This document shows, piece after piece, positions 11,106-33,902 of a stretch of DNA of 64,000 bases (its first letter is position 1; every line of letters begins with the position of its first letter). The notes under the pieces are model-generated. The model searched no databases and had not been told where the DNA came from. It saw nothing but the letters and a program-made list of their open reading frames with translations. The DNA lies in assembly GCA_019828565.1 (NCBI GenBank), contig JAHDYR010000041.1:1-64000 (forward strand), written 5' to 3'. This DNA is from Carpediemonas membranifera BICM (taxonomy: Eukaryota; Protista; Fornicata). Position numbers and translations under genes: made by a program.

Positions 11106-11143
11106 ATACTGTCCAGGGTTCAGGAATTTCCCTTATTGGGTAG

Positions 11144-13257: not shown

Positions 13258-13369
13258 CGCGCAGCAAAAAACAACAAATAAGCGCCAGGTGCACTACAGC
13301 GCACCCTGACGCTCTCCTCTACCGAGAGGAATTGACCAAAAAACAGACCTATAAATGCCGGGGACAGTG

Positions 13370-13469: not shown

Positions 13470-13548
13470 TACTCATTTCTGAATCATTCAAAATGAGATG
13501 GATTGCAAATCCTGGATCGAGATTTGCGCAGTTTTGGGTGGGTCAGAA

Positions 13549-14403: not shown

Positions 14404-14839
14404 GGTGAGACACCTACAGAAGATGAAAGAGAGAATGTAAAGACTAACGAACAATTTAAGCAATCGAAGATTGGCCTGATATTGGCTAGAGCAGAAGGTA
14501 TAATAGCCGAGGGGGTTGACGCGTATAGCGCAACAATAAGGGAAAAGCGTGGGTTCAAGTGAGAAAAAAGAACACCACGTGCTATCAAAAAAAGACTTGG
14601 GTTCGAGCCCAAGACAGATAGGAGAAATGCCACCCGGCTTCGCCGGGCGGACTTTGGGAAATCCGTATAGTAAATCATATCTAGATAAATCTAGTAGATT
14701 TCCTGGATACGGTGGTCAGCTAGATTTAAGAAAAATCTTGACCAAAGTGATTTGATATAATAAAAATGAGACGATTCGCAATCTCGACACCGTCGACACC
14801 GCGATCTCGCAAAACCCGCCGGGCCATAAGAACCACGAA

Positions 14840-15463
14840 ATGGTTTGTTGACTGATATGCCCCGTCGAGGGCTGGGGTGTATCAAAACGATGTTTATATA
14901 GGATCAACACGCTCACGTTCAGTTCTCTCCGTCAAACTCCGATGTTCGTTTCACTTAGCGTTTTCACCCAGTTCAGCACCCAGCAGCTTAGGGTCGAGGA
15001 CCTTCCGACCCTGGAACCTCACCAGGACACGCCTGAGGGTCAGCGCCTCCTCTCCGACGACTCCCTCTTCAGCACGCCGCCTGAAGCCAGCATGTACGAT
15101 CTATGGAGCGCTCCGCAAACTCCTGACCTCTCCCGCTGCCGGCAGAAGCTGAATTTTCAGGATTACCTGAAGACGACTGAAAGCGAAGAGGAAGACGATG
15201 ACTTGTTCATCGAGCATGAGCCGGCAGGGGACGACTGCGACATGGAATGGAATCCGGGGTACACCAGCGACGAAGTCTGGGAGCGCTACGTCGCAACATG
15301 TGAGCGCGTAGGTACGATCTGGCCTAGAGTAGAGGTCATATCCCGTTGGAAGGAGGAGGAGCCAGAGGGAGAGGATGAGCTTCAGCGCTTCATCTGGAGC
15401 TGGTTCACGGATGACCAGCTCCAGAACGTGCCCTCGTGGCTGAGAGAGCACGAGTTCGAATAA
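14840..15463 (+). CDS. Viral acidic protein, spliced: join(14840-14842,14902-14943,14972-15463), 178 aa
   Basis: Introns GTTTGT..TAG (59 nt) and GTTCGT..CAG (28 nt), conserved in position and phase across divergent alleles. Confidence 0.8.
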
Positions 15464-15809
15464 AGACTGATAATGTTTATGTTGTTTCGGGCCTCCGACT
15501 GCCCAGTAAAACTGGGACGGCCCTTTATATCTTCAGCTTTTCATTGCATTCCCGGCGTTCGCTACGTACCTCCGCTCAGGCTTTCGCCGGCTATCTTACG
15601 CGCTATCGCGCGCGCTGCTGCGCGAGCTATGTAAATGGGGCCCCTCCCCCATTTATGGGGTTTCCGAATTAACGTAAAGAGTCGTGTTCACATTTAAGTG
15701 CAGATCAAAATTTGAATTAATCAAAATGAGATGGATCGCAAATCCCGGATCACTTTTTTGATCTCGACACACGACGACACCACAAAACGCAGTTTTACCC
15801 GAGTCAGAA

Positions 15810-16418
15810 ATGAACGAGAGAGCAAAAGACGAACAAAACCTCGTAGAGCAACTGGAAACAGCTGCCAAATGGTTCCCAACGATGTATATTCCGCATTTCC
15901 AACGCGAAATCGAAAAAGCACTACACAATAGCGCACAACCCGTTTATCCGCTAGAAACTGCGAACAAAACGAGCCTCAAGAACTGGTACTTCTCATGGAT
16001 GACACAAGAAGACAGACCGACAAACGTTTTCGCTAAGCAACTCGCTAACAAACTAAGAGAAGGAACTATCACAGTTCGCGCAACAGCGCTGACCGATGGT
16101 GGGCCATGGACGACAATCTACCACTGCGAAATACACTCTGCAAGCCGCATCTCGGGTAAAATGCTCGCAACAACAGTAACAGAGGTCGCGAGAGATAACG
16201 GCGTCATAACATCAGTGACGATGGCATACAAGCAGCCGCAATTCCGCGACTACCGCATCACTGAAGGATATGCCCACGAACCAAACGACAAATCAATTCT
16301 AATGACAGTCGAAGGCACGAGGGCCATATACTCAGAAAAAGCAGTCGTCGAAGAAGAAGAAGACACAAGACAACTAGAGGTGACACAAGAAGGTCATGGA
16401 TTTAATTTGCATAAATAA
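15810..16418 (+). CDS. Viral hypothetical protein (202 aa), copy 1
   Basis: Length conserved with the divergent copy 22224-22832; shares its leader motif with rep. Confidence 0.85.
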   Translation: MNERAKDEQNLVEQLETAAKWFPTMYIPHFQREIEKALHNSAQPVYPLETANKTSLKNWYFSWMTQEDRPTNVFAKQLANKLREGTITVRATALTDGGPWTTIYHCEIHSASRISGKMLATTVTEVARDNGVITSVTMAYKQPQFRDYRITEGYAHEPNDKSILMTVEGTRAIYSEKAVVEEEEDTRQLEVTQEGHGFNLHK

Positions 16419-17394
16419 TGGTAATACCAATACCAGGGGTTTGGACAGTATCGCCGTCTGGGACGACCATAGGCAGAAACGCCTTGTAACGATCAACAGA
16501 AAAAGGATCTGTTGTCTTCTCAATCAAATGCAGGTTGCCCGCATTGGGAGTGCCAACTACCTTCCATTCAAGATCATATGGGGCAACAAACAAGCACTCG
16601 GGGCTAATCCCGGGAGAAAGAGAATGCTGCCTCTCCAAGGGCATCAACATAGGATCCCACGACGGAGTACCAGGAGGAAGAGAGCTACCCTCCGTATCCA
16701 ACTGAACGCGGAGGTCAGACGGAATAAAATAGGTATCAACAAACAGCACACAGGGAGATGACTTAGAAGTCAACTCTTGACCTGGGAGCCTATAACGCTG
16801 AAGCTGAATCAAGTTCACGCCAGACTCATAGTTGATAGCAACCGAGAGAGACGACGACCCATCGTCATGAGTAACAACACGAGAAACACACGGATGACGA
16901 TCAATCAAATGCAACTGAGTTGCCTTTCTACCTACAGGGAAATCGTTCGAATCGCCACCATAGATAGTCAGAAATGGGGGGTCGGGAACAAACGCTGGAC
17001 GCGGCTGGAAGGTGGACCCAGTCCACCCACCATCACCATCAACGACGCGAATGCCAGCGAGAGAAGAAGATTCTTCCAGAGCAGAAACAATTTCCTGCTC
17101 GACTGCGCCCGGCTCAAGAAAAGCCGAGCCAGAAGCAGTCTCCATCAAACCAACATTCATAAAGCCGTTAACGACGAACACTCCAAAACAAAAGCCTTGA
17201 TCACACTGCTCATCCGGCGTAATCGGATCGCCGGAAGCATTACACATACGAGCATAACCAGAGCAGGAAGTAAGCGTCTTCACCTTCTGACCATAACTAT
17301 GCATATCATCGTAACGAACACCAACAGTAGCATGCTCGCCAAATCGCAAAACATGCTCATTGTAAGCCGACAACGCGTTCGACGGATAACTCAT
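16402..17394 (-). CDS. Viral protein (330 aa) downstream of the capsid; candidate second structural or protruding-domain protein
   Basis: Protein nearly unchanged in copy 2 apart from an in-frame deletion; same frame as the capsid ORF. Confidence 0.8.
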   Translation of the reverse strand: MSYPSNALSAYNEHVLRFGEHATVGVRYDDMHSYGQKVKTLTSCSGYARMCNASGDPITPDEQCDQGFCFGVFVVNGFMNVGLMETASGSAFLEPGAVEQEIVSALEESSSLAGIRVVDGDGGWTGSTFQPRPAFVPDPPFLTIYGGDSNDFPVGRKATQLHLIDRHPCVSRVVTHDDGSSSLSVAINYESGVNLIQLQRYRLPGQELTSKSSPCVLFVDTYFIPSDLRVQLDTEGSSLPPGTPSWDPMLMPLERQHSLSPGISPECLFVAPYDLEWKVVGTPNAGNLHLIEKTTDPFSVDRYKAFLPMVVPDGDTVQTPGIGITIIYAN

Positions 17395-17412
17395 TAACAG
17401 AACAGATCAAGT

Positions 17413-18207
17413 TTATGTAGAAGGAGACAGATAAGACGCAATCGTCTTCTCTGCAGAAGGCATCGAAAACTCAACAGTATACTCGATCCAAAAACGACCG
17501 AGCAGATCGGGGGTAGAACGGGTAGCAGAGCTAGCATAGACAAACTGACCGTTATCAGTACCACGGTCAGGAGCATTCGTAAACTGAGGGTTAGTAGACT
17601 TGCTGGAGGAGCGAACCGGTACGGGCAACGACCAAGAAGACCAGCAAGGACCGGAGGCAGAACATTCGTTCTGCAACATACGAGTGGGATCAACAGGAAC
17701 GGGCTCCAGAGGATTGGGCTCCCACATAATAGTGATAGTGCCAGCGCCCTGAGGAGATTCCTCGGGCTGATAGACAAGGTGAGCAGATACGATCTTGTAA
17801 CGATCGAAGTTCTTGCTCAGCGCATCGAGGCGGTTAAACACATTTCCAACCGTAAAAGGGTGATGACCCATGCCGGACCTATAAATGCCGCCAGCCTGAG
17901 TAATGGCGGCATCCTGGATCTGATAACGACTATCGCGGTAAATCCGATAGTCCACAGCAGGGTGAACAGCCGGGTCTGTACGAGCAGTCACGGGAAACAG
18001 AACCTCGCGGAAGGTCATGCGGAGACGGCCGTTACTCCGGGGCGAGATGATCTTCGTCTTGCGATACACGGACCGACGAAAGGGAAAACGACGCGAAGTA
18101 GTAGCCCGCTTACGCGATGTACGGCGAGGACGACGAGTGAAACCACGACGGGTTCGGCGAGGCCGACGGCTAGACCGACGGCGATTTCTTCTAGCTCCAT
18201 ATGCCAT
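17413..18207 (-). CDS. cap: Capsid protein (264 aa): Arg-rich arm + tombusvirus-like S-domain jelly roll
   Basis: MAYGARRNRRR arm; FREVL, FNRLDALSKNFDRYKIVSAHLVYQP, GTITIMWEPNPLEPVP, DNGQF and LGRFWIEYTVEFSMP match S-domain motifs. Confidence 0.88.
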   Translation of the reverse strand: MAYGARRNRRRSSRRPRRTRRGFTRRPRRTSRKRATTSRRFPFRRSVYRKTKIISPRSNGRLRMTFREVLFPVTARTDPAVHPAVDYRIYRDSRYQIQDAAITQAGGIYRSGMGHHPFTVGNVFNRLDALSKNFDRYKIVSAHLVYQPEESPQGAGTITIMWEPNPLEPVPVDPTRMLQNECSASGPCWSSWSLPVPVRSSSKSTNPQFTNAPDRGTDNGQFVYASSATRSTPDLLGRFWIEYTVEFSMPSAEKTIASYLSPST

Positions 18208-18214
18208 ATTTATG

Positions 18215-19675
18215 TCAATATTTACGCCAACGATAGACCCGCCGAGACTGGCGATATCCACGAGAATTATAATATCTACGATAACGAGGTCGCCACATAG
18301 GAGTGCGCCCAAAATTGCGTGGCTTATACCAACGGGCACCGCGATGGGTGAAAAACTTGGAATGCCAAGTAGGACGGAAGGGGCGACGCTCAGACTTCTG
18401 CGCGCGAGTCTGCTTGAAGTCTGAATACCGCGAGATCGCGCGAGGGGCGCGATCTAGCTGATGAGAGCGTTTCGACTTCTTAAAGTCGGAAACCTTGTAA
18501 GACAAAGAAAACTTGTCTGGGCGAAGAGCCTCATACTCATCCAACCGACGATAACGAAGATAATCCTTCAATATCGCCTTCTGGTTAGGATTACGCATAC
18601 TAGCTATCACCCGATCATACATATGACAGGAGTACGGACTAAGGGAATCGCGAAACTGCAAACGTTTCGCAGTCGGGTTACGGAAAGACGATGCCCACTT
18701 AACGAGATCCTGGTTCTCGACAGCATCAAACTCAGCCCAAAAGGGCTGCAGACGTCTAGACGTACTGCGAAAATCGGGATGATAAGTTCGAATGAGCTTC
18801 GACCACTGCGGAGCATCGGACGAATACTGCAGATGCTTCATCGCATAAGGATAAAGCGACTTAGGATTGTGATAACGCGCATTACGAACAGGCGCTGCTG
18901 GGGGCACATAAACGCCGGCGAGGCGATCAAACGCCTCGTCGCGCTTCTCCGGGACAGACGACCGAGCCTTACGAACAAGAGGAGCAGTAGGTCTCCGCTT
19001 ACGAGGAGGAGCGCTCTGTCGAGCAGGAGGAGCAGCGTCCTCTTCCGGACGCTGCTCAATGGGACCAAGGGCAGGCTCGGGAACAGAACGGTGATCGGGA
19101 GCATTCATGATTGGAACCGAGAGATAGACATGCCCCAAAATAGGGTCACGGTAGGAACGCAGCACCTTGCCTGCGTCCTGGTGAACCGTAAAAAAGGCAT
19201 TACGATGCTTACCAAGAGTACGCACAATACCTGGCATATCGTCCAAAACTGACATAACATGAAGAGTGTTATGCCCAGGCTGATACGGCTTCGGCTGCTG
19301 GCTGTCAGGAACAGAACTGACAACGTCGCGCAAATAAATTGCGGACTTCAGCCAGCCTTCCTTCAGCGCAGAATCCTTAGTAGGAACCTCGCGAAACCAC
19401 TTGCCAAAAGCAAGCTTCGTCGCAGGATCTCCAGACTTGAAGGCAAGATCATGAACCGCAGAAAGAGTATTCATGCGAACTTCGCCCGACTTAATGTAGC
19501 GAAGCAAATCACCGACGGCCGCATAATCATGCGAGCCAGGTCCAATAGAATCGCCGTACGGAGCAAGCCCGCCGGCTGACTTCTTATTGGAAAGATAATC
19601 GATTACGTCACCACGTAAATCGGAGTCACTGACATACGAACGCACAAAAGCATCCCAATCAACGTCAGATGACAT
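18215..19675 (-). CDS. Viral 486-aa protein with N-terminal PLA2-like motifs and Arg/Tyr-rich C-terminus
   Basis: PYGDSIGPG and NTLSAVHDLAF motifs; basic tail RPRYRRYYNSRGYRQSRRVYRWRKY. Confidence 0.8.
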   Translation of the reverse strand: MSSDVDWDAFVRSYVSDSDLRGDVIDYLSNKKSAGGLAPYGDSIGPGSHDYAAVGDLLRYIKSGEVRMNTLSAVHDLAFKSGDPATKLAFGKWFREVPTKDSALKEGWLKSAIYLRDVVSSVPDSQQPKPYQPGHNTLHVMSVLDDMPGIVRTLGKHRNAFFTVHQDAGKVLRSYRDPILGHVYLSVPIMNAPDHRSVPEPALGPIEQRPEEDAAPPARQSAPPRKRRPTAPLVRKARSSVPEKRDEAFDRLAGVYVPPAAPVRNARYHNPKSLYPYAMKHLQYSSDAPQWSKLIRTYHPDFRSTSRRLQPFWAEFDAVENQDLVKWASSFRNPTAKRLQFRDSLSPYSCHMYDRVIASMRNPNQKAILKDYLRYRRLDEYEALRPDKFSLSYKVSDFKKSKRSHQLDRAPRAISRYSDFKQTRAQKSERRPFRPTWHSKFFTHRGARWYKPRNFGRTPMWRPRYRRYYNSRGYRQSRRVYRWRKY

Positions 19676-19786
19676 CGCGCAGCAAAAAACAACAAATAAG
19701 CGCCAGGTGCACTACAGCGCACCCTGACGCTCCTCTACCGAGAGGAATTGACCAAAAAACAGACCTATAAATGCCGGGGACGAGTG

Positions 19787-19886
19787 GCCAATTCCCGCTA
19801 GTAATATTAAGGGCGCATTTCAGCACACGACAGTTTAAGGTAAACTTAAACTGCGCGCGCTTCGCGCCCTTCTAGCGGGAATTGGC
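19787..19886 (-). promoter_or_regulatory. Viral origin 2 (nonamer 19801-19809)
   Basis: Same hairpin and TAATATTAC as origin 1. Confidence 0.85.
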
Positions 19887-19964
19887 TACTCATTTTGAAT
19901 CATTCAAAATGAGATGGATTGCAAATCCTGGATCGAGATTTGCGCAGTTTTGGGTGGGTCAGAA

Positions 19965-20855
19965 ATGCAAGCGAAGACGTGGTTTCTAACATACCCGCGT
20001 TGGAACGCGGATAGTCCTACAGAGTTCAATGAAATCATGCAAGGCATCACTCTCTTACTTGACAAAGAATTTAACAGAGAATACGTCGCTTACGTCATCG
20101 CTCGAGAGAAACACCACGACCCCGAAGACTCCGACGAATCGTGTAACTTGCACTATCACATCTTCCTGAAACTTAACAACAAATTAAGATGGAACGCAAA
20201 GACATCACCTCATGCATGGGATCTATGGGGCAATCACCCAAACGTGCAAACGTGTAGATCGCCCGACGCAGTCGTGAAATACTGCCAGAAGGAGGGGGAT
20301 TACGAAGCCGACGGGGTTAACCTAGAGAGCCGAGCCAAGAAGCGAAAGGCATATAATCTCGAGATGTTCACCAGAGACCCGCTGGATCTGGTGAAAGAGG
20401 GCCTAGTTAACCCAGCACAATACCTTAACTGTGTTAAGGCGCAGGCTCACTACAAACTACACGCAGAGCCCCAGACTCACGCAGAAGGCACCAGAGGCAT
20501 CTGGATCTGGGGCGAACCAGGAGTTGGAAAGTCGCACGCCGCAAGACACGAATACGGCGAAAGCATCTTCGTTAAGGCTCAGAATAAGTGGTGGGACGGC
20601 TACAAGGGCGAAACGGTAATCATTCTGGATGACCTAGACACACCTGTGCTGAACCACTACCTCAAAATCTGGGCAGACAGATGGGCTTGCTCCGGTGAGG
20701 TGAAAGGCTCAACTGTGCCACTCAGGCACGAGACGTTCATCGTCACGTCAAACTATCCAATTGAGCACTTCACAGACGGGGACAATGCAATGAGAGAGGC
20801 GCTGACGAGGAGGTTTAAGGTGAGACACCTACAGAAGATGAAAGAGAGAATGTAA
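19965..20855 (+). CDS. rep: CRESS Rep copy 2 (intact)
   Basis: All HUH and SF3 motifs including RRF. Confidence 0.96.
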   Translation: MQAKTWFLTYPRWNADSPTEFNEIMQGITLLLDKEFNREYVAYVIAREKHHDPEDSDESCNLHYHIFLKLNNKLRWNAKTSPHAWDLWGNHPNVQTCRSPDAVVKYCQKEGDYEADGVNLESRAKKRKAYNLEMFTRDPLDLVKEGLVNPAQYLNCVKAQAHYKLHAEPQTHAEGTRGIWIWGEPGVGKSHAARHEYGESIFVKAQNKWWDGYKGETVIILDDLDTPVLNHYLKIWADRWACSGEVKGSTVPLRHETFIVTSNYPIEHFTDGDNAMREALTRRFKVRHLQKMKERM

Positions 20856-21252
20856 AGACTAACGAACAATTTAAGCAATCGAAGATTGGCCTGATATTGG
20901 CTAGAGCAGAAGGTATAATAGCCGAGGGGGTTGACGCGTATAGCGCAACAATAAGGGAAAAGCGTGGGTTCAAGTGAGAAAAAGAACACCACGTGCTATC
21001 AAAAAAGACTTGGGTTCGAGCCCAAGACAGATAGGAGAAATGCCACCCGGCTTCGCCGGGCGGACTTTGGGAAATCCGTATAGTAAATCATATCTAGATA
21101 AATCTAGTAGATTTCCTGGATACGGTGGTCAGCTAGATTTAAGAAAAATCTTGACCAAAGTGATTTGATATAATCAAAATGAGACGATTCGCAATCTCGA
21201 CACCGTCGACACCGCGATCTCGCAAAACCCGCCGGGCCATAAGAACCACGAA

Positions 21253-21879
21253 ATGGTTTGTTGACTGATATGCCCCGTCGAGGGCTGGGGTGTATCAAAA
21301 CGATGTTTATATAGGATCAACACGCTCACGTTCAGTTCTCTCCGTCAAACTCCGATGTTCGTTTCACTTAGCGTTTTCACCCAGTTCAGCACCCAGCAGC
21401 TTAGGGTCGAGGACCTTCCGACCCTGGAACCTCACCAGGACACGCCTGAGGGTCAGCGCCTCCTCTCCGACGACTCCCTCTTCAGCACGCCGCCTGAAGC
21501 CAGCATGTACGATCTATGGAGCGCTCCGCAAACTCCTGACCTCTCCCGCTGCCGGCAGAAGCTGAATTTTCAGGATTACCTGAAGACGACTGAAAGCGAA
21601 GAGGAAGACGATGACTTGTTCATCGAGCATGAGCCGGCAGGGGACGACTGCGACATGGAATGGAATCCGGGGTACACCAGCGACGAAGTCTGGGAGCGCT
21701 ACGTCGCAACATGTGAGCGCGTAGGTACGATCTGGCCTAGAGTAGAGGTCATATCCCGTTGGAGGGAGGAGGAGCCGGAGGGAGAGGCAGAACTGAACCA
21801 CTTCATTTGGACGTGGTTTACCGACGAGCAACTCCTAAACGTGCCCTCATACCTGAGAGAGCACGAATTCGATATGTAA
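21253..21879 (+). CDS. Viral acidic protein copy 2: join(21253-21255,21315-21356,21385-21879)
   Basis: Same splice sites as copy 1; C-terminus diverged. Confidence 0.8.
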
Positions 21880-22223
21880 ACATTCTGAGTATTTAAGTTG
21901 TTTCGGGCCTCCGACTGCCCAGTAAAACTGGGACGGCCCTTATATTTTCAGCTTTTCATTGCATTCCCGGCGTTCGCTACGTACCTCCGCTCAGGCTTTC
22001 GCCGGCTATCTTACGCGCTACCGCGCGCGCTGCTGCGCGAGCTATTTAAATGGGGCCCCTCCCCCATTTATGGGGTTTCCGAATTAACGTAAACAGTCGT
22101 GTTCACAATTAAGTACAATCAAACCGTTTGAATTAATCAAAATGAGACGGATCGCAAATCCCGGATTGCTTTTGATCTCGACACACGACGACACTACAAA
22201 CCGCAGTTTTACCGGAGTTAGAA

Positions 22224-22832
22224 ATGAACGACAGAGAGAAAGAAGACCAAATCCTCATAGAGGAAATCGAAACTGCCGCAAAACAGTTTCCGCCTATGTA
22301 CACTGCACATTTCCAACGCGAAACCGAACAAGTACTGCACAACAGCACTCAACATGTCTATCCCTTGGAAACAGCTAACAAAACAAGCCTCAAGAACTGG
22401 TACTTCTCATGGATGACACAAGACAACACCGCGACAGACGACTTCGCTCTGCAACTCGCTCAGAAACTAACAGAAGGCACGATTACGGTCCGCGCAACAG
22501 CACTGCTCAATGGCGGACCATGGACGACAATGTACCACTGCGAAATACACTCTGCAAGCCGCATCTCAGGGAAGATGCTCGCAAAAACAGTCAGAAAAGT
22601 CGCAAGAAACAACCCGGTGATAACATCAGTGACTACGGCATACAAGACGCCACAGTTCTACGACTACCGCATAACTGAACCATATGCCCACAAACACAAC
22701 GACAAATCAATTCTCATGACAGTCGAAGGCACGAGGGCCATATACTCAGAAAAAGCAGTCGTCGAAGAAGAAGAAGACACAAGACAACTAGAGGTGACAC
22801 AAGAAGGTCATGGATTTAATTTGCATAAATAA
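22224..22832 (+). CDS. Viral hypothetical protein (202 aa), divergent copy 2
   Basis: Many substitutions over the first ~160 aa; identical C-terminus. Confidence 0.85.
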   Translation: MNDREKEDQILIEEIETAAKQFPPMYTAHFQRETEQVLHNSTQHVYPLETANKTSLKNWYFSWMTQDNTATDDFALQLAQKLTEGTITVRATALLNGGPWTTMYHCEIHSASRISGKMLAKTVRKVARNNPVITSVTTAYKTPQFYDYRITEPYAHKHNDKSILMTVEGTRAIYSEKAVVEEEEDTRQLEVTQEGHGFNLHK

Positions 22833-23763
22833 TGGTAATACCAATACCAGGGGTTTGGACAGTATCGCCGTCTGGGACGACCATAGGCAGAAACGCCTTG
22901 TAACGATCAACAGAAAAAGGATCTGTTGTCTTCTCAATCAAATGCAGGTTGCCCGCATTGGGAGTGCCAACTACCTTCCATTCAAGATCATAGGGGGCAA
23001 CAAACAAGCACTCGGGACTAATGCCAGGAGAAGGAGAATGCTGCTTCTCCAAAGGCATCAACATAGGATCCCAAGACGGCGTACCAGGGGGAAGAGAGCT
23101 ACCCTCCGTATCCAACTGCACACGGAGGTCAGACGGAATAGAATAGGTATCAACAAACAGCACACAGGGAGATGACTTAGAAGTCAACTCTTGACCTGGG
23201 AGCCTATAGCGCTGAAGCTGAATCAAGTTCACGCCAGACTCATAGTTGATAGCAACCGAGAGAGACGACGACCCGTCGTCATGGGTAACAACACGAGAAA
23301 CACACGGATGGCGATCAATCAAATGCAACTGAGTTGCCTTTCTACCGACAGGGAAATCGTTCGTTGGACGCGGCTGGAAGGTGGACCCAGTCCACCCACC
23401 ATCACCATCAACTACGCGAATACCAGCGAGAGAAGAAGATTCTTCCAGAGCAGAAACAATTTCCTGCTCGACTGCGCCCGGCTCAAGAAAAGCCGAGCCA
23501 GAAGCAGTCTCCATCAAACCAACATTCATAAAGCCGTTAACGACGAACACTCCAAAACAAAAGCCTTGATCACACTGCTCATCCGGCGTAATCGGATCGC
23601 CGGAAGCATTACACATACGAGCATAACCAGAGCAGGAAGTAAGCGTCTTCACCTTCTGACCATAACTATGCATATCATCGTAACGAACACCAACAGTAGC
23701 ATGCTCACCAAATCGCAAAACATGCTCATTGTAAGCCGACAACGCGTTCGACGGATAACTCAT
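22816..23763 (-). CDS. Viral 330-aa protein copy 2 (315 aa; 45-nt in-frame deletion)
   Basis: Alignment to 16402-17394. Confidence 0.8.
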   Translation of the reverse strand: MSYPSNALSAYNEHVLRFGEHATVGVRYDDMHSYGQKVKTLTSCSGYARMCNASGDPITPDEQCDQGFCFGVFVVNGFMNVGLMETASGSAFLEPGAVEQEIVSALEESSSLAGIRVVDGDGGWTGSTFQPRPTNDFPVGRKATQLHLIDRHPCVSRVVTHDDGSSSLSVAINYESGVNLIQLQRYRLPGQELTSKSSPCVLFVDTYSIPSDLRVQLDTEGSSLPPGTPSWDPMLMPLEKQHSPSPGISPECLFVAPYDLEWKVVGTPNAGNLHLIEKTTDPFSVDRYKAFLPMVVPDGDTVQTPGIGITIIYAN

Positions 23764-23781
23764 TAACAGAACAGATCAAGT

Positions 23782-24576
23782 TTATGTAGAAGGGGACAGA
23801 TAGGACGCAATCGTCTTCTCTGCAGAAGGCATCGAAAACTCAACAGTATACTCGATCCAAAAACGACCGAGCAGATCGGGGGTAGGACGGGTAGCAGAGC
23901 TAGCATAAACAAACTGACCGTTATCAGTACCACGGTCAGGAGCATTCGTAAACTGAGGGTTAGTAGACTTGCTGGAGGAGCGAACCGGTACGGGCAAGGA
24001 CCAAGAAGACCAGCAAGGACCGGAGGCAGAACATTCGTTCTGCAACATACGAGTGGGATCAACAGGAACGGGCTCCAGAGGATTGGGCTCCCACATAATA
24101 GTGATAGTGCCAGCGCCCTGAGGAGATTCCTCGGGCTGATAGACAAGGTGAGCAGATACGATCTTGTAACGATCGAAGTTCTTGCTCAGCGCATCGAGGC
24201 GGTTAAACACATTTCCAACGGTAAAAGGGTGATGACCCATGCCAGACCTATAAATGCCGCCAGCCTGAGTAATGGCGGCATCCTGGATCTGATAACGACT
24301 ATCGCGGTAAATCCGATAGTCAACAGCAGGGTGAACAGCCGGGTCTGTACGAGCAGTCACGGGAAAGAGAACCTCGCGGAAGGTCATGCGGAGACGGCCG
24401 TTACTCCGGGGCGAGATGATCTTCGTCTTGCGATACACGGACCGACGAAAGGGAAAACGACGCGAACTAGTAGCCCGCTTACGCGATGTACGGCGAGGAC
24501 GACGAGTGAAACCACGACGGGTTCGGCGAGGCCGACGGCTAGACCGACGGCGATTTCTTCTAGCTCCATATGCCAT
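23782..24576 (-). CDS. cap: Capsid protein copy 2
   Basis: As copy 1, with two visible amino-acid changes. Confidence 0.88.
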   Translation of the reverse strand: MAYGARRNRRRSSRRPRRTRRGFTRRPRRTSRKRATSSRRFPFRRSVYRKTKIISPRSNGRLRMTFREVLFPVTARTDPAVHPAVDYRIYRDSRYQIQDAAITQAGGIYRSGMGHHPFTVGNVFNRLDALSKNFDRYKIVSAHLVYQPEESPQGAGTITIMWEPNPLEPVPVDPTRMLQNECSASGPCWSSWSLPVPVRSSSKSTNPQFTNAPDRGTDNGQFVYASSATRPTPDLLGRFWIEYTVEFSMPSAEKTIASYLSPST

Positions 24577-24583
24577 ATTTATG

Positions 24584-25141
24584 TCAATATTTACGCCAAC
24601 GGTAGACCCGCCGAGACTGGCGATATCCACGAGAATTATAATATCTACGATAACGAGGTCGCCACATAGGAGTGCGCCCAAAATTGCGTGGCTTGTACCA
24701 ACGGGCACCGCGATGGGTGAAAAACTTGGAATGCCAAGTAGGACGGAAGGGGCGACGCTCAGACTTCTGCGCGCGAGCCTGCTTGAAGTCTGAATACCGC
24801 GAGATCGCGCGAGGGGCGCGATCTGGCTGATGAGAGCGTTTCGACTTCTTAAAGTCGGAAACCTTGTAAGACAAAGAAAACTTGTCTGGGCGAAGAGCCT
24901 CATACTCATCCAACCGACGATAACGAAGATAATCCTTCAATATCGCCTTCTGGTTAGGATTACGCATGCTAGATATCACCACGGCCGCATAATCATGCGA
25001 GCCAGGTCCAATAGAATCGCCGTACGGGGCAAGCCCGCCGGCCGACTTCTTATTGGAAAGATAATCGATTACGTCACCACGTAAATCGGAGTCACTGACA
25101 TACGAACGCACAAAAGCATCCCAATCAACGTCAGACGACAT
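24584..25141 (-). pseudogene. PLA2-like protein copy 3 with a ~903-nt in-frame internal deletion
   Basis: 185 vs 486 aa; the junction lies at an ATCACC microhomology near 24975-24980. Confidence 0.85.
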
Positions 25142-25258
25142 CGCGCAGCAAAAAACAACAAATAAGCGCCAGGTGCACTACAGCGCACCCTGACGCTCCT
25201 CTACCGAGAGGAATTGACCAAAAAAAAAACCCGGAGCTTAAAATGCCGGGGCCAGGGG

Positions 25259-25358
25259 GCCAATTCCCGCTAGTAATATTAAGGGCGCATTTCAGCACAC
25301 GACAGTTTAAGGTAAACTTAAACTGCGCGCGCTTCGCGCCCTTCTAGCGGGAATTGGC
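25259..25358 (-). promoter_or_regulatory. Viral origin 3 (nonamer 25273-25281)
   Basis: Same hairpin as origins 1 and 2. Confidence 0.85.
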
Positions 25359-25435
25359 TACTCATTTGAATCATTCAAAATGAGATGGATTGCAAATCCT
25401 GGATCGAGATTTGCGCAGTTTTGGGTGGGTCAGAA

Positions 25436-26326
25436 ATGCAAGCGAAGACGTGGTTTCTAACATACCCGCGTTGGAACGCGGATAGTCCTACAGAGTTCAA
25501 TGAAATCATGCAAGGCATCACTCTCTTACTTGACAAAGAATTTAACAGAGAATACGTCGCTTACGTCATCGCTCGAGAGAAACACCACGACCCCGAAGAC
25601 TCCGACGAATCGTGTAACTTGCACTATCACATCTTCCTGAAACTTGACAACAAAATAAGATGGAACGCAAAGACATCACCTCATGCATGGGATCTATGGG
25701 GCAATCACCCAAACGTGCAAACGTGTAGATCGCCCGACGCAGTCGTGAAATACTGCAAGAAGGAGGGGGATTACGAAGCCGACGGGGTTAACCTAGAGAA
25801 CCGAGCCAAGAAGCGAAAGGCATATAATCTCGAGATGTTCACCAGAGACCCGCTGGATCTGGTGAAAGAGGGCCTAGTTAACCCAGCACAATACCTTAAC
25901 TGTGTTAAGGCGCAGGCTCACTACAAGCTACACGCAGAGCCCCAGACTCACGCAGAAGGCACCCGAGGCGTCTGGATCTGGGGCGAACCAGGAGTTGGAA
26001 AGTCGCACGCCGCAAGACACGAATACGGCGAAAGCATCTTCGTTAAGGCTCAGAATAAGTGGTGGGACGGCTACAAGGGCGAAACGGTAATCATTCTAGA
26101 TGACCTAGACACGCCTGTGCTGAACCACTACCTGAAAATCTGGGCAGATAGATGGGCTTGCTCCGGTGAAGTGAAAGGCTCGACTGTGCCACTCAGGCAC
26201 GAGACGTTCATCGTCACGTCAAACTATCCGATTGAGCACTTCACAGACGGGGACAATGCAATGAGAGAGGCGCTGGTGAGGAGATTCAAGGTGAGACACC
26301 TACAGAAGATGAAAGAGAGAATGTAA
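25436..26326 (+). CDS. rep: CRESS Rep copy 3 (intact, slightly diverged)
   Basis: All motifs present; YCKK and LVRRF variants. Confidence 0.96.
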   Translation: MQAKTWFLTYPRWNADSPTEFNEIMQGITLLLDKEFNREYVAYVIAREKHHDPEDSDESCNLHYHIFLKLDNKIRWNAKTSPHAWDLWGNHPNVQTCRSPDAVVKYCKKEGDYEADGVNLENRAKKRKAYNLEMFTRDPLDLVKEGLVNPAQYLNCVKAQAHYKLHAEPQTHAEGTRGVWIWGEPGVGKSHAARHEYGESIFVKAQNKWWDGYKGETVIILDDLDTPVLNHYLKIWADRWACSGEVKGSTVPLRHETFIVTSNYPIEHFTDGDNAMREALVRRFKVRHLQKMKERM

Positions 26327-26724
26327 AGACTAACGAACAATTTAAGCAATCGAAGATTGGCCTGATATTGGCTAGAGCAGAAGGTATAATAGCCGAGGGG
26401 GTTGACGCGTATAGCGCAACAATGAGGGAAAAGCGTGGGTTCAAGTGAGAAAAAGAACACCACGTGCTATCAAAAAAAGACTTGGGTTCGAGCCCAAGAC
26501 AGATAGGAGAAATGCCACCCGGCTTCGCCGGGCGGACTTTGGGAAATCCGTATAGTAAATCATATCTAGATAAATCTAGTAGATTTCCTGGATACGGTGG
26601 TCAGCTAGATTTAAGAAAAATCTTGACCAAAGTGATTTGATATAATCAAAATGAGACGATTCGCAATCTCGACACCGTCGACACCGCGATCTCGCAAAAC
26701 CCGCAGGGCCATAAGCACCAAGAA

Positions 26725-27342
26725 ATGGTTTGTGTGCCGATAATGCCCTGCGAGGGCTAGAAGGTATCTAAAACGGTCTTATATAGGTTCAACAAGCTCA
26801 CATCGAGTCCTCTACTTCCGTCGCCGAGGTACGTTACACTTAGACCGTTCACACAGACTATCGAAACTCCGCAGCTTAGCGTCGAACAACTTCCGTATCT
26901 AACTCCTCACAACAGCACTCTGGAGGGACAGCAGCTCCTAAGCGATGATTCCATCTTCTCGACGCCGCCGGAGGCCGATTTCTATGAATCCTGGGGTGCC
27001 CCGGAGACGCCGAACCTCGCAAGAGTCAGACGGCATCTTTTTCTCCCGACAACCATAGAGTCGGACGACGATGACCTGTTCGTTCATCCAGAGCCGGAGG
27101 GGGACGACACGGAGATGGGGTGGATGCCGGAGTACGACGAAGATGAGGTGTGGGAGAAGTATGTAGCGATCTGCGAGACAGTTGGAGTCATATGGCCTCG
27201 CATCGAGGTGATCGAGAGATGGAAGGAGGAGGAGCCGGAGGGCGAGGAGGAGCTGAGACGCTTCCTCTGGAGCTGGTTCACTGACGACCAGCTCAAGAAC
27301 GTGCCCTCTTACCTGAGAGAGCACGAGTTCGATGAATTTTAA
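26725..27342 (+). CDS. Viral acidic protein, divergent allele: join(26725-26727,26787-26828,26857-27342)
   Basis: 59-nt GTTTGT..TAG and 28-nt GTACGT..CAG introns give a full open frame homologous to copy 1. Confidence 0.8.
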
Positions 27343-27583
27343 ATATTCTGAGTAGTTTAGTTGTTTCGGGCCTCCGACTGCCCAGTAAAACTGGGACGGC
27401 CCTTATATTTTCAGCTTTTCATTGCATTCCCGGCGTTCGCTACGTACCTCCGCTCAGGCTTTCGCCGGCTATCTTACGCGCTACCGCGCGCGCTGCTGCG
27501 CGAGCTATTTAAATGGGGCCCCTCCCCCATTTATGGGGTTTCCGAATTAACGTAAACAGTCGTGTTCACATTTAAGTGCAATC

Positions 27584-28933
27584 CAGTATCCATCGAAAAC
27601 TCGATCTACTTCAAGGACGGAGTGCCGATTATCCCCAAGGGAGAGACACGCGACAAGGCCCTTCGGACCGCTCACCAATTTCATACGGGAGCAAATTCAA
27701 CGTTCCAAGCACTCGCCACGTCTGCATTTTGGCCGGGGATGCTCTTGGACGTCAAAAAGCACATCAAGACGTGCCCCATTTGTCTGAAGACTCGCATCAA
27801 GGACTACTTTATCGCCCAAAAGGGCCAGACAAGACGCACCAGACCATGGGAGACAGTGGCAGTCGACACAATTGGCCCTCTCCCAACGGATTCGCTGGGC
27901 GCTCGCTACATCATTGTGGCTGTAGACATGTTTACAAGATACACCGAGCTCGTCGCAGTCGCATCGATCGACGCCGAGACCTCCGCCAGGGCCCTATGGG
28001 ACCACGTTTTCACGCGACACGGGATACCGGCGGAGATTCTGTCCGACGGCGGCCCGGAGTACGCGAACTCGATAGTTGAACAACTCACAACGTCATTGAA
28101 AGTCGCACACCACTTCACCATCCCGTTTCATCCACAGAGCAATGGTCTCGTGGAGAGAAGGAATGCGGAGATTGGAAGACACCTACGGTGGCTTGTCCTG
28201 GCAATAGCCTACAAAGACCAGTGGTGCGGACTCCTACCGACGGTCCAGATGATTATCAACGGCACGACACATACGGCCACGAAGTTCTCCCCGCACGAGC
28301 TGATATTTGGCCATGAGCACAACATGTTTACAAGCTGGTGGACGAACGACAACAACTCTCCGATCAGAGATTTCCCAGAGTTCAAAAAGGACCTGGAGCT
28401 GGCCCTTAACGCCCTGGAGACCACTGCCAGAGAGAGTGTGGGCCCGGGCCAAAAGACAATAGTCAACACCGAACTGAAGCCGGGTGACTACGTCCTCTGG
28501 AAAGATGAGGCCCCTCAGAAGCTAGACGCGCGCAACAGGGGCCCATGGAAGGTACACGATGTACTTGATAATAACAGAATAGTCCTGCAGTCGATACTCG
28601 ACGGATCGACCAGATCAACCCACATTGAAAAACTCATGATGTTCGACACGGATGCCGTAACGGACACGATGATGCTTCAACTTGCAAGCTTCGACCAGAA
28701 AAAATGGGAGGTAGAGCGAGTAGTATCGGTAGACTGGAAAGAAGGGACAGCCGCCATCAAGTGGGTAGGATTCGAAAACATAACGGAAGAACCACTCTCG
28801 GGAGTGAAACACCTCGAGGAGATGAAGAGGTTGGCCCGTAAGGCGAGGAAGAACCTGAAACTCTACTAACCATCTTTTTCCCCCGTTCCTTGCAGGTTGG
28901 GGGTTTTCTCATCAAAAAGGGAGGTAGTGTCAC
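27584..28933 (+). mobile_element. Ty3/gypsy (chromovirus-like) 3' fragment: integrase + chromo-like domain, PPT and LTR start
   Basis: HxxxH...CPIC zinc finger; VAVDTIGP, ILSDGGPEY and SNGLVERRN (DDE); GPW; WEVERV..IKWVGF. Stop at 28869, PPT aaaaagggagg ~28914-28924, TGTCAC at 28928. Confidence 0.9.
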
Positions 28934-29382
28934 CGGTCTATAAACTGCTCCGTCCAGTTTTGACCACTTTTACCCCGCTGCGGTTTACTGTAAATGATTT
29001 CAACCGACAGCCAGGCTTCCTCTGGATTCCTTTCCATCCATCTGGTGTCACCGACCTTGAGCGTAAGCTTCTCTTTGTGTAGTATCGTCTGGGAGAGGCT
29101 GGATAGCGATACTGAAATACCGAACTTCAGCTGCACGACAGTGGCTATGTCGCTAAGCCGAGCAGCCGGATTCTGGAGAACATAGTCACGTACATACTTC
29201 GTCACTTCTGGGCTCATCTTGGTAGCTGATCTCACTCTCTTTCCAGAGCATTTCGCTCTATTGGCCTTGATATCATAGATGACATTGCGGCAACGGCCCG
29301 TTACGCGTGCAATGTTTGCTATAGACATTTCACTTCCGAGAAGTGTTGCTATGTTCAGTCTCTCTGAATCAGTTACGACCAT
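28930..29382 (-). mobile_element. IS630/Tc1-like transposase N-terminal HTH fragment
   Basis: MSIANIARVTGRCRNVIY and VLQNPAARLSDIA...FGISVSLSSLSQTIL...LTLK resemble tandem HTHs; DDE domain missing. Confidence 0.65.
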
Positions 29383-29455
29383 TCACTCTCTTCAATTTGT
29401 GAGCAGAACTTTGAATGAATCAAAACCAATTGTTCATTTTTACGCTGAAAGAGCA

Positions 29456-32400
29456 ATATGTAATAATATATAACCATAGAACGAACAAAAGCATGTCCAA
29501 AGCATTGGAATTCACGCCAGAGGTCCCTCTGGAGCTGCTCGAAGACCTTGTCTATGAGGCAGCAGCCTACGTCTTCGACCCGGAGCCTCACCGCCACGTC
29601 CTCGACACGGATGCGCTTCGTGTTGTAGTTTCGGAGCCCTCGGCCAAGCATATCCGTTCCGTGAGGGTTTATGTTGGCCAGAGCAACAAGCACGAGCTTG
29701 CCATGCGCTTTAACGAGCCGAAGGACGGCAGAGCTGCCACACTCTCCCACGTGTTTGGCAAGCAGAAGGAGCAGTTCAAGCGCTCTGTCGCTTGCGTTGC
29801 GATCATGATAGTGTGCATTCCTGTTGTCACTCACAATTGCGAAACTCGCTCTCTGTTCCATAACCTGCACATCGGATTTGAACGATGACGACAGCCAACA
29901 GTGGATCGCATTTGAGCATCTTGCGGCTCTATACACCACTATAAAGCGTGGTAAGATAGAGACCGCAAGTCAATGCATCAACATGATCGAGGATTCCTGT
30001 GTGGAACGATTTGTGATGTTCTGGCTAACTACAGAGAACGCGGCGACGATTTACAACGAGAAAACGGCTGCTCTGCAGGAGAGCTATGGAGACGGAGTTG
30101 TGCGGTGCTCGGGTACGGACAGCATCACGAGAACAATATCATCTTCCTCTCGTGGTGTCGAGCATGTATCGAGCATTGAGCGAGCATCAAGCGTCATGCA
30201 GCGTCACTTGGAGTTCCTGCATTGGGGCAAGATCGCCCTTTCCTGTAGCGGCAGGACGCTAGCTGACTTTGCGACTCAGCACTTCCCCTTCCGTGTCTCT
30301 GATATTGAACGCAAGATTGTCTTCGTGGTGATGGTCACCGTTCCCAATGAGTTCATGGTTTGGTATAAGGCGCTTGTTGACGAGAAGATCGATGAAGAAG
30401 AGTTTACCTACTACATCATTTATCGTCTTAACTCCAGCGCGAAGGATCACATGGTTGTTAATGCCCTAACCTTCAAATATGAATGATCAGAGAGAGTGAT
30501 GTGGTTAAATGGATTGCAAATGAGTCTTTTTAATGTCTCACCACCTGTTTGGGCCTCAGCGCTGTCGTTCAGGCCAATCCACGTTTGTGGATCCGTGCAG
30601 TTTATGGCTTATCGACCGGACATCTCCTGAACTGAGCGCCAGGGGGCGGAGGTGGCGTTGGCGTGGGGCGTGGAGGCGCTGGGGGCGGGGGTGGCGTTGA
30701 TATTGGGCAATTACATAAAGTGCACGGTGCTTGGAATTTCATTCCAACCTCAAAATGGCGGGAAAGCATTATTGGAAGGAACTAGTGGCAGCTATGCGGT
30801 TCTTTATACTGCAAAAGCAACCAGCTGTCGTCAAAAGCGCGCCATCTACCATCAATAACCAACATCTGCGTTGCACTCAGGCCATAAGCACCAAGAAATG
30901 GTTTGTTAACCGATAATGCCCTGCGAGGGCTAGGAGGTATCAGAAAGTGTTTTACACAGGTACAAGACGTTCACATTCAGTTCTCTCCTTCGTCTGACGA
31001 AGTAAGTACCACTTGGCAAATTCTTACATAGGTTCAGCATGAGCAGTTTAGGGTCGAGGACCTCCCAGTTATCCGTCCTCACGCCGAAAGTCCGGAGGGG
31101 CAGCAGCTCCCGTCCGACGACTCCTTGTTCTCGACCCCGCCGGAGGCGAGCGTATACGACCAGTGGACCGCCCCGTCCACTCCGGACCTCACACGGGTGC
31201 GCCGGGAGCTCTTTCTACCGTCTGTAGAAAGCGACGATGATGACACGTTCATCGTGCCAGAGCCTGAGGGCGACGACGTCGATATGGAGTGGAACCCCGG
31301 TTACACATCCGACGAGGTTTGGGAGAAATATCAGAGAAAACCAGAGAATCTACGCAAAAACAGTGGAGTACCATCAGAGAACTACTAGACAGCTACCTGA
31401 TCAAGGAAGGAAACGCCCGGACCTTACTACTGCGCAGAAGTGACGACTTTTCCGAAAAGTCCTTCGGCGCAAGCTCCACAGCCCGCAAGGAAGTACTAAC
31501 CAACGTCAGAAGGATCCTCACAGCCTCAGGAGTGACCGACAACAGGGACACCATCCTCAGACATCCGAACGGCATCCACGGGCTTCGCGACCTCTTCATC
31601 ATGGTAACAGAGGCCCTAGACCCCCAGAGAAGCAGAGATTCAGCGCATCGCCAGCTCTAACGAGCCCACATCAGTGAGACCAGGGCACAAGGACATGGCC
31701 AGATGGCCCAAGGAGCAGTCCATCGAACAAGCAGTCCTGCAACCCAGAGGCCAGAACCCCATTCAGTGGGACAACGTCAGAGACAGCGTCGAAAACAGAG
31801 AGACTGGCATGTACTCGGTCATCACAGGGACAGCAGAGGATGAAGCCCCCGAGTGCCTCAGCGGCGAGCAAGTGTGGGACCCGTCCAACAGAGGACCCAT
31901 CACCAGAGTAGCCATAGAGCAAGAGGATGGCACCTTCAGAGTTCTACTGGACCTGGAAGACACGGAGGCATGGCCCATCACCAGGTACATGGAAGAGGCA
32001 AGAGACATCCTGAGACTGCAGGCACCATAGGCACCAGTGGTGTGGCAAGCGGCATGGAATAGCTCAGGAGTAGACACCAGCGGCCGTAGCGGTATCCGGA
32101 AGCGAGGGGAAGAGACGCCGCTCAGTGGCAAGCCGCAGTTTGCAGTAGTCAGAGCCGAAATCATCGGAGCAGAGATCAGCCGTGACAAGAGAGCCGAACA
32201 TGCCTCCCAGGAGGACAGGTCTGCTAGCACGGACATCGACAGCGACGTAGAGATGACGAGGCCGGACAGTATCTGTGGTAGCCAAGCCCCGGCAACCCCA
32301 GCGTCTCAGAGGATGAACAGAGTCAGCGCCAACAAGAGAACCACAAGGACCCCCAAGCGGCTGGTGCTGGGGGCGAGGCATCAGGCAAGCGTACTCAGCT

Positions 32401-32529
32401 TCCTATAGACAGTGCGAACAGAGACAAGGAGGTGCCGCCGAGGATTAGCCTGGAAGACATCGTCCAAGAGCATATCAGAGACCAGCAGGAGACCAGAAGG
32501 ATGGCTGATGAGGGGAGGAGCCAGCCCGA
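29456..32529 (+). repeat. ~3.07-kb composite segmental duplication, copy 1 (copy 2 at 36447-39519)
   Basis: Near-identical sequence and ORFs; includes unknown ORFs (29493-30486), a viral gene fragment and a purine-rich ORF fragment. Confidence 0.95.
30898..31331 (+). pseudogene. Third allele of the viral acidic gene, 3'-truncated (duplicate at ~37890-38322)
   Basis: ATG, 59-nt intron 30901-30959, 42-nt exon, 30-nt GTAAGT..TAG intron 31002-31031, then RVEDL...STPPE...WNPGYTSDEVWEKY. Confidence 0.85.
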
Positions 32530-33902
32530 TGTAGCGTTGATGCTGATCTCCATGAGATGCTCGATGTCCTTGCACGCCGTTTGCTTTCCCCTGATCATGA
32601 GTTTAACGCTGATCTTGCGGACTCACTGGCCAATCTCATGGATCACTACGTCGAACGTGCTCCAGGTGTCGATACCGCGTACGACGAGGATATGATGGAG
32701 AATCGTTCCCATTATAGAGTTGTTTCCCGCGGCCTTGCCCGCCCTGTTCACCGAGGGCCGGACATATTATTGTAGGATCGCCGATGGGTATCCAGCTCGA
32801 GGTGTAGCTATTGGGATGGCTATGTGCGAGGCGCCTCATTCCCGTGTGAATCTTATTCATCCGAGGTTGATTTTTTTTCGCAGGGCAGAAGGGACGGCAA
32901 GGCAGCGTAGGGCCGCACACAGGGCCCAAATCAAGTCAACTCCGCCGGTTGCCAAGACAAGGTCGAAGGCCGCCAAGGAGAGGAGACTGCTCTGCGACCC
33001 CAAGCCGACGAACCTCACGTCGACCGAGGCAACTGGCCTGACCAAATGGGTCGAGAGTCTCGAAACGCACGGTGATGACACTCTCGCAGTTCGGGCCGAG
33101 TTGCAGAGATTGCAGAGACGGGGCACAACTCAGCGGGCCCACATCGCCATCACCGCCGTGCGCCAGAGTTTGCATCAGCCCGCTCAGGTGGGGGTCCATT
33201 ACACCGACCAAGTGGCCCCTGCCCGTCGCCGTCGCCGCCCGCGGCAGGCTGACCGCCAGCCTGGTGACGGACCAGCCGCAGCTGTGCAGCAGGGTTCCGG
33301 AAACACCACACATGGAGACGGCGAGGAGGTATGTCATTTGGCGACGCCGACGATACGATATCGGAGGGTACCGTGCCTACAGCCCTGCCTCTGATGCCGG
33401 ACCTGCGAACCCCGTACAAGACAACACCTCACTCGGTTGGGATGACGGGTTTGGGTTCGACCGTGGTTTTGATTCGCCCGAACACCAGGATATCTTGACC
33501 CCAATCCCCGTCCGCCTGCATCGTGCCGAGGATCAGCATGTCTCGGAGGCGGGTCGTGCCGAGCGACAGCCTGCCCGGAACAGACGTGGCCCCAACCGCC
33601 GCATTGTTGAAGAAGAAGCCGCACTTGGAAAGTGAGACAGAAACGAGAGAAGAAATGGACCCCGACGCATATGTCACGATTTGCTGTTTTAACTCAATGT
33701 AAGGGAAGACGGATGGGGAGAAGTTGCACTTGCGCATTTACCTGTAGGTCCAATAGACAATTTATATCGCGCTAATAGAAACCGCGCAAGCCGCTTAAGC
33801 CAAGCATCCGGCCATCGCGAACCTCCTCCGTTCCTTTCCGCGTGGAACGATGAACAGCCCCGCATCCTTGGCGATAATGCGCGAGTTCTTCAGCTGCTCG
33901 GC

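Follow-up and report, generated by a model that had tools for sequence, protein, structure and literature searches.

A doubly spliced accessory gene in an integrated crucivirus-like array of the protist Carpediemonas membranifera

Why would a small viral gene carry an intron directly behind its start codon, and whose spliceosome removes it? The question is raised by 64,000 nt of Carpediemonas membranifera BICM DNA (assembly GCA_019828565.1, contig JAHDYR010000041.1, positions 1 to 64,000; hereafter the window), where a gene that we call X recurs within and beyond a tandem array of integrated CRESS (circular, Rep-encoding single-stranded) DNA virus genomes. Carpediemonas splices both introns of the X allele shared by copies 1 and 2. 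We consider it highly probable that X is an accessory gene of the integrated virus, and that its introns, which are removed in Carpediemonas RNA, evolved for a Carpediemonas-type spliceosome before integration.

Gene X and its two introns

The layout of gene X is the same at 14840, 21253, 26725 and 30898: an ATG, a 59-nt intron (GTTTGT..YAG), a 42-nt exon of 14 codons, a second intron of 28, 28, 28 and 30 nt (donors GTTCGT, GTTCGT, GTACGT and GTAAGT, respectively) and a main exon, with both introns in phase 0. The original prediction had placed these four copies, and its coordinates and its intron and exon lengths proved exact on re-reading. Its three exon 2 peptides and three divergent alleles are confirmed as well, with copies 1 and 2 sharing one: these two copies do not differ over 14826-15340 (515 nt at the 5′ end), so the four places hold three alleles. 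The lengths and phase are preserved in all alleles while the sequences diverge, as it had claimed. Its range of 14840 to 31331 missed a fifth copy at 37890, located within a 3-kb duplication, and a leader remnant at 10520.

14826-14842, plus strand: copy 1 exon 1 (14-nt leader and ATG); mRNA 5′ end at 14826, from X1 and X2 contigs
14843-14901, plus strand: copy 1 intron 1, 59 nt, a start-codon intron in phase 0 with a predicted central hairpin; removed in X1 and X2
14902-14943, plus strand: copy 1 exon 2, 42 nt, from the sequence layout and X1 and X2 contigs
14944-14971, plus strand: copy 1 intron 2, 28 nt, phase 0; skipped in X1 and X2
14972-15463, plus strand: copy 1 exon 3; the predicted spliced product has 178 residues and is acidic
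21253-21879, plus strand: copy 2, 179 residues; introns 21256-21314 and 21357-21384
26725-27342, plus strand: copy 3, divergent allele, 176 residues, presumably spliced; introns 26728-26786 and 26829-26856
30898-31331, plus strand: copy 4, divergent allele, outside any full viral unit and truncated about 100 codons into exon 3; introns 30901-30959 and 31002-31031
37890-38218, plus strand: copy 5, truncated, duplicated from copy 4 and frameshifted by one base (a true change or an assembly error); introns 37893-37951 and 37994-38023

When both introns are removed, the three complete copies encode 176–179 residues, compared to 3–11 residues without splicing and 3–24 residues when one intron is left. 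In all three alleles, the ATG reaches the main exon only via double splicing. The first Met codons inside exon 3 are at codons 41, 41, 87 and 85 of copies 1 to 4, and thus no other start is conserved. The length of intron 2 differs between alleles (28 nt in two, 30 nt in one), and the exons that flank it align and are in frame only after its removal. A two-intron pattern, which had been written from the X introns themselves, matched the window five times, compared to no matches in 200 dinucleotide shuffles.

Three sequencing runs from one sample (X1, X2 and X3) contain part of the viral unit, and their contigs were compared with positions 9800-19800. The runs are not on record as RNA; their adaptor-marked 5′ ends, a poly(A) end and the absent introns lead us to treat them as complementary DNA (cDNA). 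One contig each of X1 and X2 (depths of 3.5 and 4.8, respectively) lacks the 28 letters at 14944 and joins the leader and ATG (14828-14841 in X1, 14826-14841 in X2) to the exon 2 side at 14901/14902. Both predicted junctions, 14842/14902 and 14943/14972, are therefore seen spliced in two of the three runs; the X3 contigs do not extend over gene X. Unspliced transcripts were the outcome named beforehand as refuting the prediction, and the contigs were spliced, a result whose scope is the allele of copies 1 and 2. For the remaining alleles, double splicing would follow from the frame logic above. None of the three runs has contig cover over X copies 3 to 5 (26400-46300), over the viral Rep gene or over its neighbour gene Y, which is uninformative for contigs this shallow.

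The same 5′ tag precedes X (14826, plus strand), the viral gene Z (17416, minus strand) and the capsid gene (18213, minus strand) in the contigs. It matches an RNA adaptor printed in the available text of PMC1838911, is not found within the window, and is joined without an AG ahead of any of the three joins. Consequently, the tag would mark mRNA 5′ ends, all at C/ATAA (the slash being the mRNA start), on the assumption that the library was ligated at caps. The X mRNA then begins 14 nt ahead of its ATG. Spliced-leader trans-splicing was considered as the source of the shared tag and rejected on the same three grounds.

The viral unit and its transcripts

The virus is known here only from integrated head-to-tail copies, in an array flanked by non-viral DNA. 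Each unit has an origin (TAATATTAC), Rep, X and Y on the plus strand, and W, capsid and Z on the minus strand, and the array units are 95–99% identical to one another.

11967-27583: tandem viral array, with units that measure 6417 and 5472 nt from origin to origin and partial units at both ends, from self-comparison and origin positions
13384-13392, minus strand: putative origin with the nonanucleotide TAATATTAC, present once per unit; the other two end at 19809 and 25281
13549-14403, plus strand: Rep of unit 1 (HUH and SF3 helicase), frameshifted near its 3′ end
19965-20855, plus strand: Rep of unit 2, intact, 296 residues; the unit 3 Rep is at 25436-26326
15810-16418, plus strand: orphan gene Y, an open reading frame (ORF) with no Pfam family
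16402-17394, minus strand: orphan gene Z, 330 residues; mRNA 5′ end at 17416
17413-18207, minus strand: capsid gene, 264 residues, with a basic arm and a tombusvirus-like S domain; mRNA 5′ end at 18213, poly(A) end at 17400
18215-19675, minus strand: orphan gene W, 486 residues, with an Arg-rich C-terminal end; the copy at 24584-25141 lacks about 0.9 kb internally
13490, 14763, 15723, 19906, 21176, 22139, 25377 and 26648, plus strand: AAAATGAGAYG sites

Rep combines an HUH endonuclease with an SF3 helicase (PF00799 and PF00910; 563 relatives at E ≤ 1e-30), the pairing by which a CRESS virus is recognized. Among at least 120 listed Rep matches, the nearest from outside the species is P0019 (56% identical); P0018, which is 77% identical and lies on another C. 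membranifera contig (74,679 nt), is a second endogenous locus. In a quick tree with 57 rows (three window Reps and 54 of the 120 listed matches), P0019 falls together with P0018 and the three Reps of the window, with a weak support of 85. The origin regions (13365-13470, 19780-19890 and 25255-25360) are predicted to fold into a hairpin of about 100 nt, where the nonanucleotide is a bulge on one arm and not in the apical loop, its usual position in CRESS viruses.

The capsid matches PF00729 (E = 1.3e-9) and tombusvirus-type structures rank first (6MRL at E = 2.5e-14, 2ZAH and 2TBV), with the S-domain match extending to residue 261 of 264; a word-based search with the capsid returned only the window's own cluster. 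Gene Z might supply a P-like capsid domain; its predicted model has a pLDDT (predicted local distance difference test) score of 30. Neither X, Y, Z, W nor the capsid gene is present in any of 30 viral loci with related Reps. The motif AAAATGAGAYG precedes Rep, X and Y in each unit, is absent from the rest of the window and is likely a viral promoter element. The capsid stop codon lies inside the C/ATAAA that is also the Z mRNA 5′ end, with the capsid poly(A) end 16 nt beyond (17400-17416, minus strand). The stops of X copies 1 to 3 likewise read TAAA, resembling the UAAA signal of Trichomonas.

Around the array, a retroelement-type integrase gene with zinc-binding and core domains (27556-28869, plus strand) abuts the right end. 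A 668-nt duplication (11305-11972 and 33678-34345) has a weak HEPN match below the cut-off, and its left copy is cut by the array. Just left of the viral region, positions 6902-9779 hold roughly ten copies of a GC-rich tandem repeat with units of about 278 nt. A 0.9-kb repeat has two copies, 95% alike, at 44194-45104 and 58020-58943; divergent contigs map there in large numbers from each of the three runs, indicating a transcribed multi-copy family.

Transcripts of Z, capsid and W are also among the contigs: those of Z carry the allele of unit 1, those of the capsid gene carry the allele of unit 2, and the W sequence includes the junction left by the deletion in its third copy. Therefore, several units or their episomes are transcribed. 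A source in episomal virus replicating in the culture, rather than in the integrated copies, is unlikely. Circles could be released from units 2 and 3, whose Reps and origins are intact, and the contigs cannot distinguish the type of template; however, one contig reproduces both the array's W deletion junction and two variant letters, and the available text of PMC8516963 reports the Reps as unexpressed.

Domestication of the array, in which the host would retain and express X and the capsid genes to its own advantage (such as immunity to free virus), is quite unlikely. It would agree with the reading of several units and with the precision of the mRNA ends, but the array is a mosaic with lesions: the unit 1 Rep is frameshifted, the second Z has a 45-nt deletion and about 0.9 kb is lost from the third W, in addition to the truncation of X copies 4 and 5 and the integrase gene at the right end. 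Moreover, the purifying selection described below is measured between viral alleles, not between host strains.

Splice signals, intron 1 and protein X

We compared the X introns with those of host genes in the same window. Scanning the window with an intron motif returned 17 matches, compared to a shuffled mean of 1.4. Five of these are X intron 2, seven are host-type introns of 29–36 nt and five were set aside (three within one simple repeat, one inside an open frame and one unexamined). A short GTAAG tandem repeat at 10066-10103 (minus strand) mimics an intron donor three times.

47977-52914, minus strand: host genes used for comparison, with introns 48091-48119, 48202-48231, 50109-50142, 51910-51940 and 52808-52836
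62254-62289 and 35804-35838: further host-type introns from the motif scan

Removing six of the seven host-type introns (the 35804 intron was left out) restores full-length frames in all five host genes tried, and positions 1-45 and 49-68 of the SRP19 profile fall on successive exons. The host-type donors are GTTTGT (three introns), GTTCGT, GTACGT, GTACGG and GTATGA; the viral donors are GTTTGT (four introns), GTTCGT, GTACGT and GTAAGT. Six of the seven viral introns thus carry a donor hexamer also present among the seven host-type introns, which are a small local sample, selected by pattern from the sequence alone, and not a genome-wide logo. Viral and host-type introns also have 3′ ends of the form T-Y-A-Y-(1–3 nt)-AG in common. 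Within this sample, the length of intron 2 (28–30 nt) is near the host-type range, and intron 1 (59 nt) is about twice as long. The likeness to host introns that had been claimed for X therefore stands for the donors GTTTGT, GTTCGT and GTACGT and for the size of intron 2, though not for the size of intron 1. The proposed tie to the host's spliceosome gains support from the CRESS unit context, the spliced cDNA junctions and the shared donor and acceptor signals. Removal of both GT..AG introns from the mRNA of the copy 1 and 2 allele agrees with U2-type spliceosomal introns. Splicing in Carpediemonas RNA and host-like introns together point to this protist lineage as the probable natural host of the crucivirus-like virus; a related fornicate with the same splice signals may be its usual host instead.

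The interiors of intron 1 are identical at 25–36 of 45 positions, compared to 32–42% at synonymous sites (p from 0.003 to 2e-7), with GARGGC and GTAT as fixed elements. This high identity may come from recombination or from an RNA or DNA element. A fourth version of the intron, with its length kept and 25 of 59 columns invariant, is found in a remnant left of the array:

10520-11143, plus strand: ATG and homologous 59-nt intron (10523-10581), fused to the middle of a divergent Rep; mosaic remnant

The Rep part of this remnant is 41–46% identical to its nearest Reps. Taken as 10409-11143, the remnant has an X-like leader upstream, and 41 nt upstream of it recur at 34685-34724. The intron 1 pattern has no matches in viral contigs or metagenome contigs. 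A central hairpin can be folded in every version of intron 1, with a z score of −3.26 in copy 1. Two further proposals for intron 1 were rejected: use of the conserved GTAT at intron position 37 as an internal donor would retain a part that has a stop in copies 1 to 5, and an 'effective intron length' cannot serve as evidence of shortening by the hairpin, as most shuffles reach it.

Between alleles, X exon 3 has 68–69% protein identity, a synonymous divergence (dS) of 1.1–1.8 and a ratio of nonsynonymous to synonymous divergence (dN/dS) of 0.16–0.32; these values indicate purifying selection on the main exon. Five hits came from a profile search of 1.84 billion representatives, and two of them are clear relatives of X (P0012, on a contig of 2399 nt, and P0013), both from Logan contigs only; P0014 to P0016 (E from 3e-4 to 9e-4) were dropped as repeats or unrelated. 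P0012 (E = 3e-22, 38% identical to X) is called as one open frame of 223 residues that starts at the ATG and reads across both introns. In a gap-free alignment with the unspliced translation of copy 3, its first 45 residues agree at 20 positions, which include the codons over all four splice sites (M-V-C at donor 1, L-x-R at acceptor 1, R-Y-V at donor 2 and T-Q at acceptor 2). Consequently, the 59/42/28 layout has likely been kept at 38% identity. P0013 and the Rep P0019 are both on 7045-nt Logan contigs, which are probably one and the same. No relatives of X were found in viral contigs, metagenome contigs, a word-based protein search, Pfam or the sequences of solved structures, and none in the Atlas for residues 85-163, the part compared. 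Fold searches gave no viral folds at E ≤ 0.001 and a best Z of 4.5 among solved folds, which does not by itself establish a novel fold.

About one quarter of the exon 3 residues are Asp or Glu, and TPPE is present in all four window copies and in P0012. The model of X has a low-confidence N-terminal part and a helical C-terminal domain of about 65 residues (pLDDT of 67–83 by blocks). LxCxE is absent from all four window copies and no RxL motif is conserved across the alleles; these motifs mark cell-cycle modulators of the geminivirus RepA and papillomavirus E7 type. Geminivirus proteins push the cell towards DNA synthesis. Our tentative proposal, for which the odds are less than even, is that X is a non-structural, host-binding regulator with an acidic, flexible part bearing a TPPE phospho-site and a helical C-terminal domain, probably promoting DNA synthesis. 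A cell-cycle or replication role has been raised for the Carpediemonas Reps (PMC8516963, available text).

Could the 5′ region instead be a two-way switch, by which some relatives make a longer retained-intron protein besides or instead of spliced X? Introns of 59 and 28 nt add up to 29 codons, so an unspliced X mRNA would be in frame with exon 3; P0012 is open across both introns, the 10520 remnant reads open through intron 1, and the intron interiors are conserved beyond synonymous sites. However, copies 1 to 5 have a stop within intron 1 (codon 4 or 12), the 59 + 30 nt of copy 4 disrupt the frame of unspliced X, the contigs seen are spliced, and the intron identity may have the other sources named above. 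We regard such a switch as improbable. It is more improbable still that the introns were gained after integration, within the host genome, and say nothing about free virus: all copies seen as DNA are integrated and P0013, whose source is probably a free or separate genome, is called without an intron-derived start, but the same two positions are used in alleles with saturated synonymous sites (dS of 1.1–1.8), compared to units that are 95–99% alike, and intron 1 occurs in a fourth version on the 10520 remnant, whose Rep is far more distant.

According to the explanation that we favour, the virus would have evolved the X introns for a Carpediemonas-type spliceosome before integrating. Circular genomes of several related variants would then have recombined and integrated head to tail, giving the array, and X alleles 3 and 4 would be spliced like the allele of copies 1 and 2. 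Intron 1, with its double length, might be shortened by the hairpin in the way described for long diplomonad introns.

Several observations weigh against parts of this explanation. The RNA support comes from shallow contigs of one sample and covers one allele. The hairpin of intron 1 beats shuffles only in copy 1 (6 of 1000 fold as well, compared to 105, 140 and 223 of 1000 for the others), no compensatory change is seen at any of its pairs, and the 'effective length' of 27–31 nt is attained by 941–980 of 1000 shuffles, with the 10520 remnant giving 47 nt. The third-position bias of exon 2 is small (5/3/5, 4/4/5 and 4/4/6). P0012 is known as a protein only, whose source may be the same host genome, and the call of P0013 counts here as well. 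The X model is poor overall (mean pLDDT of 57), and an RxL-type cyclin motif by TP sites is present only in copies 3 and 4; it is missing from copies 1 and 2 and from that place in P0012 and P0013.

A bolder reading, speculative and rather unlikely as a whole, is a new lineage of six-gene crucivirus-like viruses of 6–7 kb in Carpediemonas-like fornicates, still transcribed and possibly capable of leaving the chromosome. In it, X would be a novel type of regulator through which a rolling-circle virus drives DNA synthesis in a host that lacks ORC and Cdc6, and the conserved, structured start-codon intron would set the amount of X.

Host assignment and known systems

For most CRESS viruses, the host is not known. 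Here, a protist that is free-living and kept in culture contains a complete, transcribed crucivirus-like genome whose splice signals match its own, which provides a host link. The Carpediemonas culture becomes a reagent that may release virus, and intron style becomes a way to assign metagenomic relatives to hosts. There is also a warning for annotation, as ORF callers miss or mis-start X (P0012 was called through both introns). The host is without canonical replication-initiation proteins (PMC8516963, available text), and therefore the mode of viral copying and the role of X become direct questions.

Cruciviruses are defined as a group by a CRESS Rep paired with a tombusvirus-like capsid gene (PMC7468197, here and below in its available text). 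The array has this pair, as well as the HUH-SF3 Rep, a NANTANTAN-type nonanucleotide, orphan ORFs and an ambisense layout. In contrast to cruciviruses, whose capsid combines R, S and P domains, the array's capsid, at 264 residues, is too short to hold a P domain beyond its S domain. Splicing was predicted for 36 crucivirus Reps and two capsids (PMC7468197); here, the spliced gene is the accessory X rather than Rep, and its splicing is seen in cDNA. The 2020 crucivirus survey found no host and suggested SAR (stramenopile, alveolate and rhizarian) protists (PMC7468197), whereas the array resides in a fornicate. No named crucivirus is among the 120 best Rep matches listed. Since its capsid does not extend beyond the S domain and has no placement in a capsid tree, we label the virus crucivirus-like and not a member of the group.

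Mastreviruses, genomoviruses and circoviruses have spliced Reps, in which a single intron either connects the two domains of Rep or gives rise to a variant of the protein. The array virus resembles them as a small single-stranded DNA virus that relies on a host spliceosome. Unlike theirs, its Rep gene is a single open frame. The introns belong to X, where two short ones in phase 0 lie on either side of the 42-nt exon next to the ATG. Splice sites of maize streak virus are mentioned in PMC7468197.

Diplomonad and parabasalid introns are short, uniform, near the 5′ end and mostly in phase 0, and include a start-codon intron, a branch point adjoining the 3′ site and longer introns with stem-loops (PMC6679479, available text). 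The T-Y-A-Y near the AG of the X introns resembles the fused branch point and acceptor of diplomonads. Unlike those of X, the introns described there are in host genes, measure about 40 nt and have longer signals; Carpediemonas goes unmentioned in the available text of PMC6679479.

The C. membranifera genome paper reports four Geminivirus-like Reps, intronless and unexpressed (PMC8516963). These are most likely the Reps described here or include them (three full and one remnant in the window, with P0018 elsewhere). In its available text, that paper treats the Reps as single unexpressed genes and makes no mention of whole units, a capsid or spliced neighbours. A literature search, outside which most subscription papers lie, found no Carpediemonas work with endogenous CRESS elements, Cressdnaviricota or a single-stranded DNA virus capsid, and no cDNA-verified accessory gene with a start-codon intron and micro-exon in a transcribed crucivirus-like fornicate array. 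Spliced CRESS genes were already known; the new elements are an accessory gene whose double splicing is verified in cDNA, and a likely host for a crucivirus-like lineage.

The CRESS families Naryaviridae, Nenyaviridae and Vilyaviridae have been tied to gut protists through endogenous copies. As in those families, the host of the array virus is indicated by integrated copies in a protist genome; unlike theirs, this host is free-living and the capsid is tombusvirus-like.

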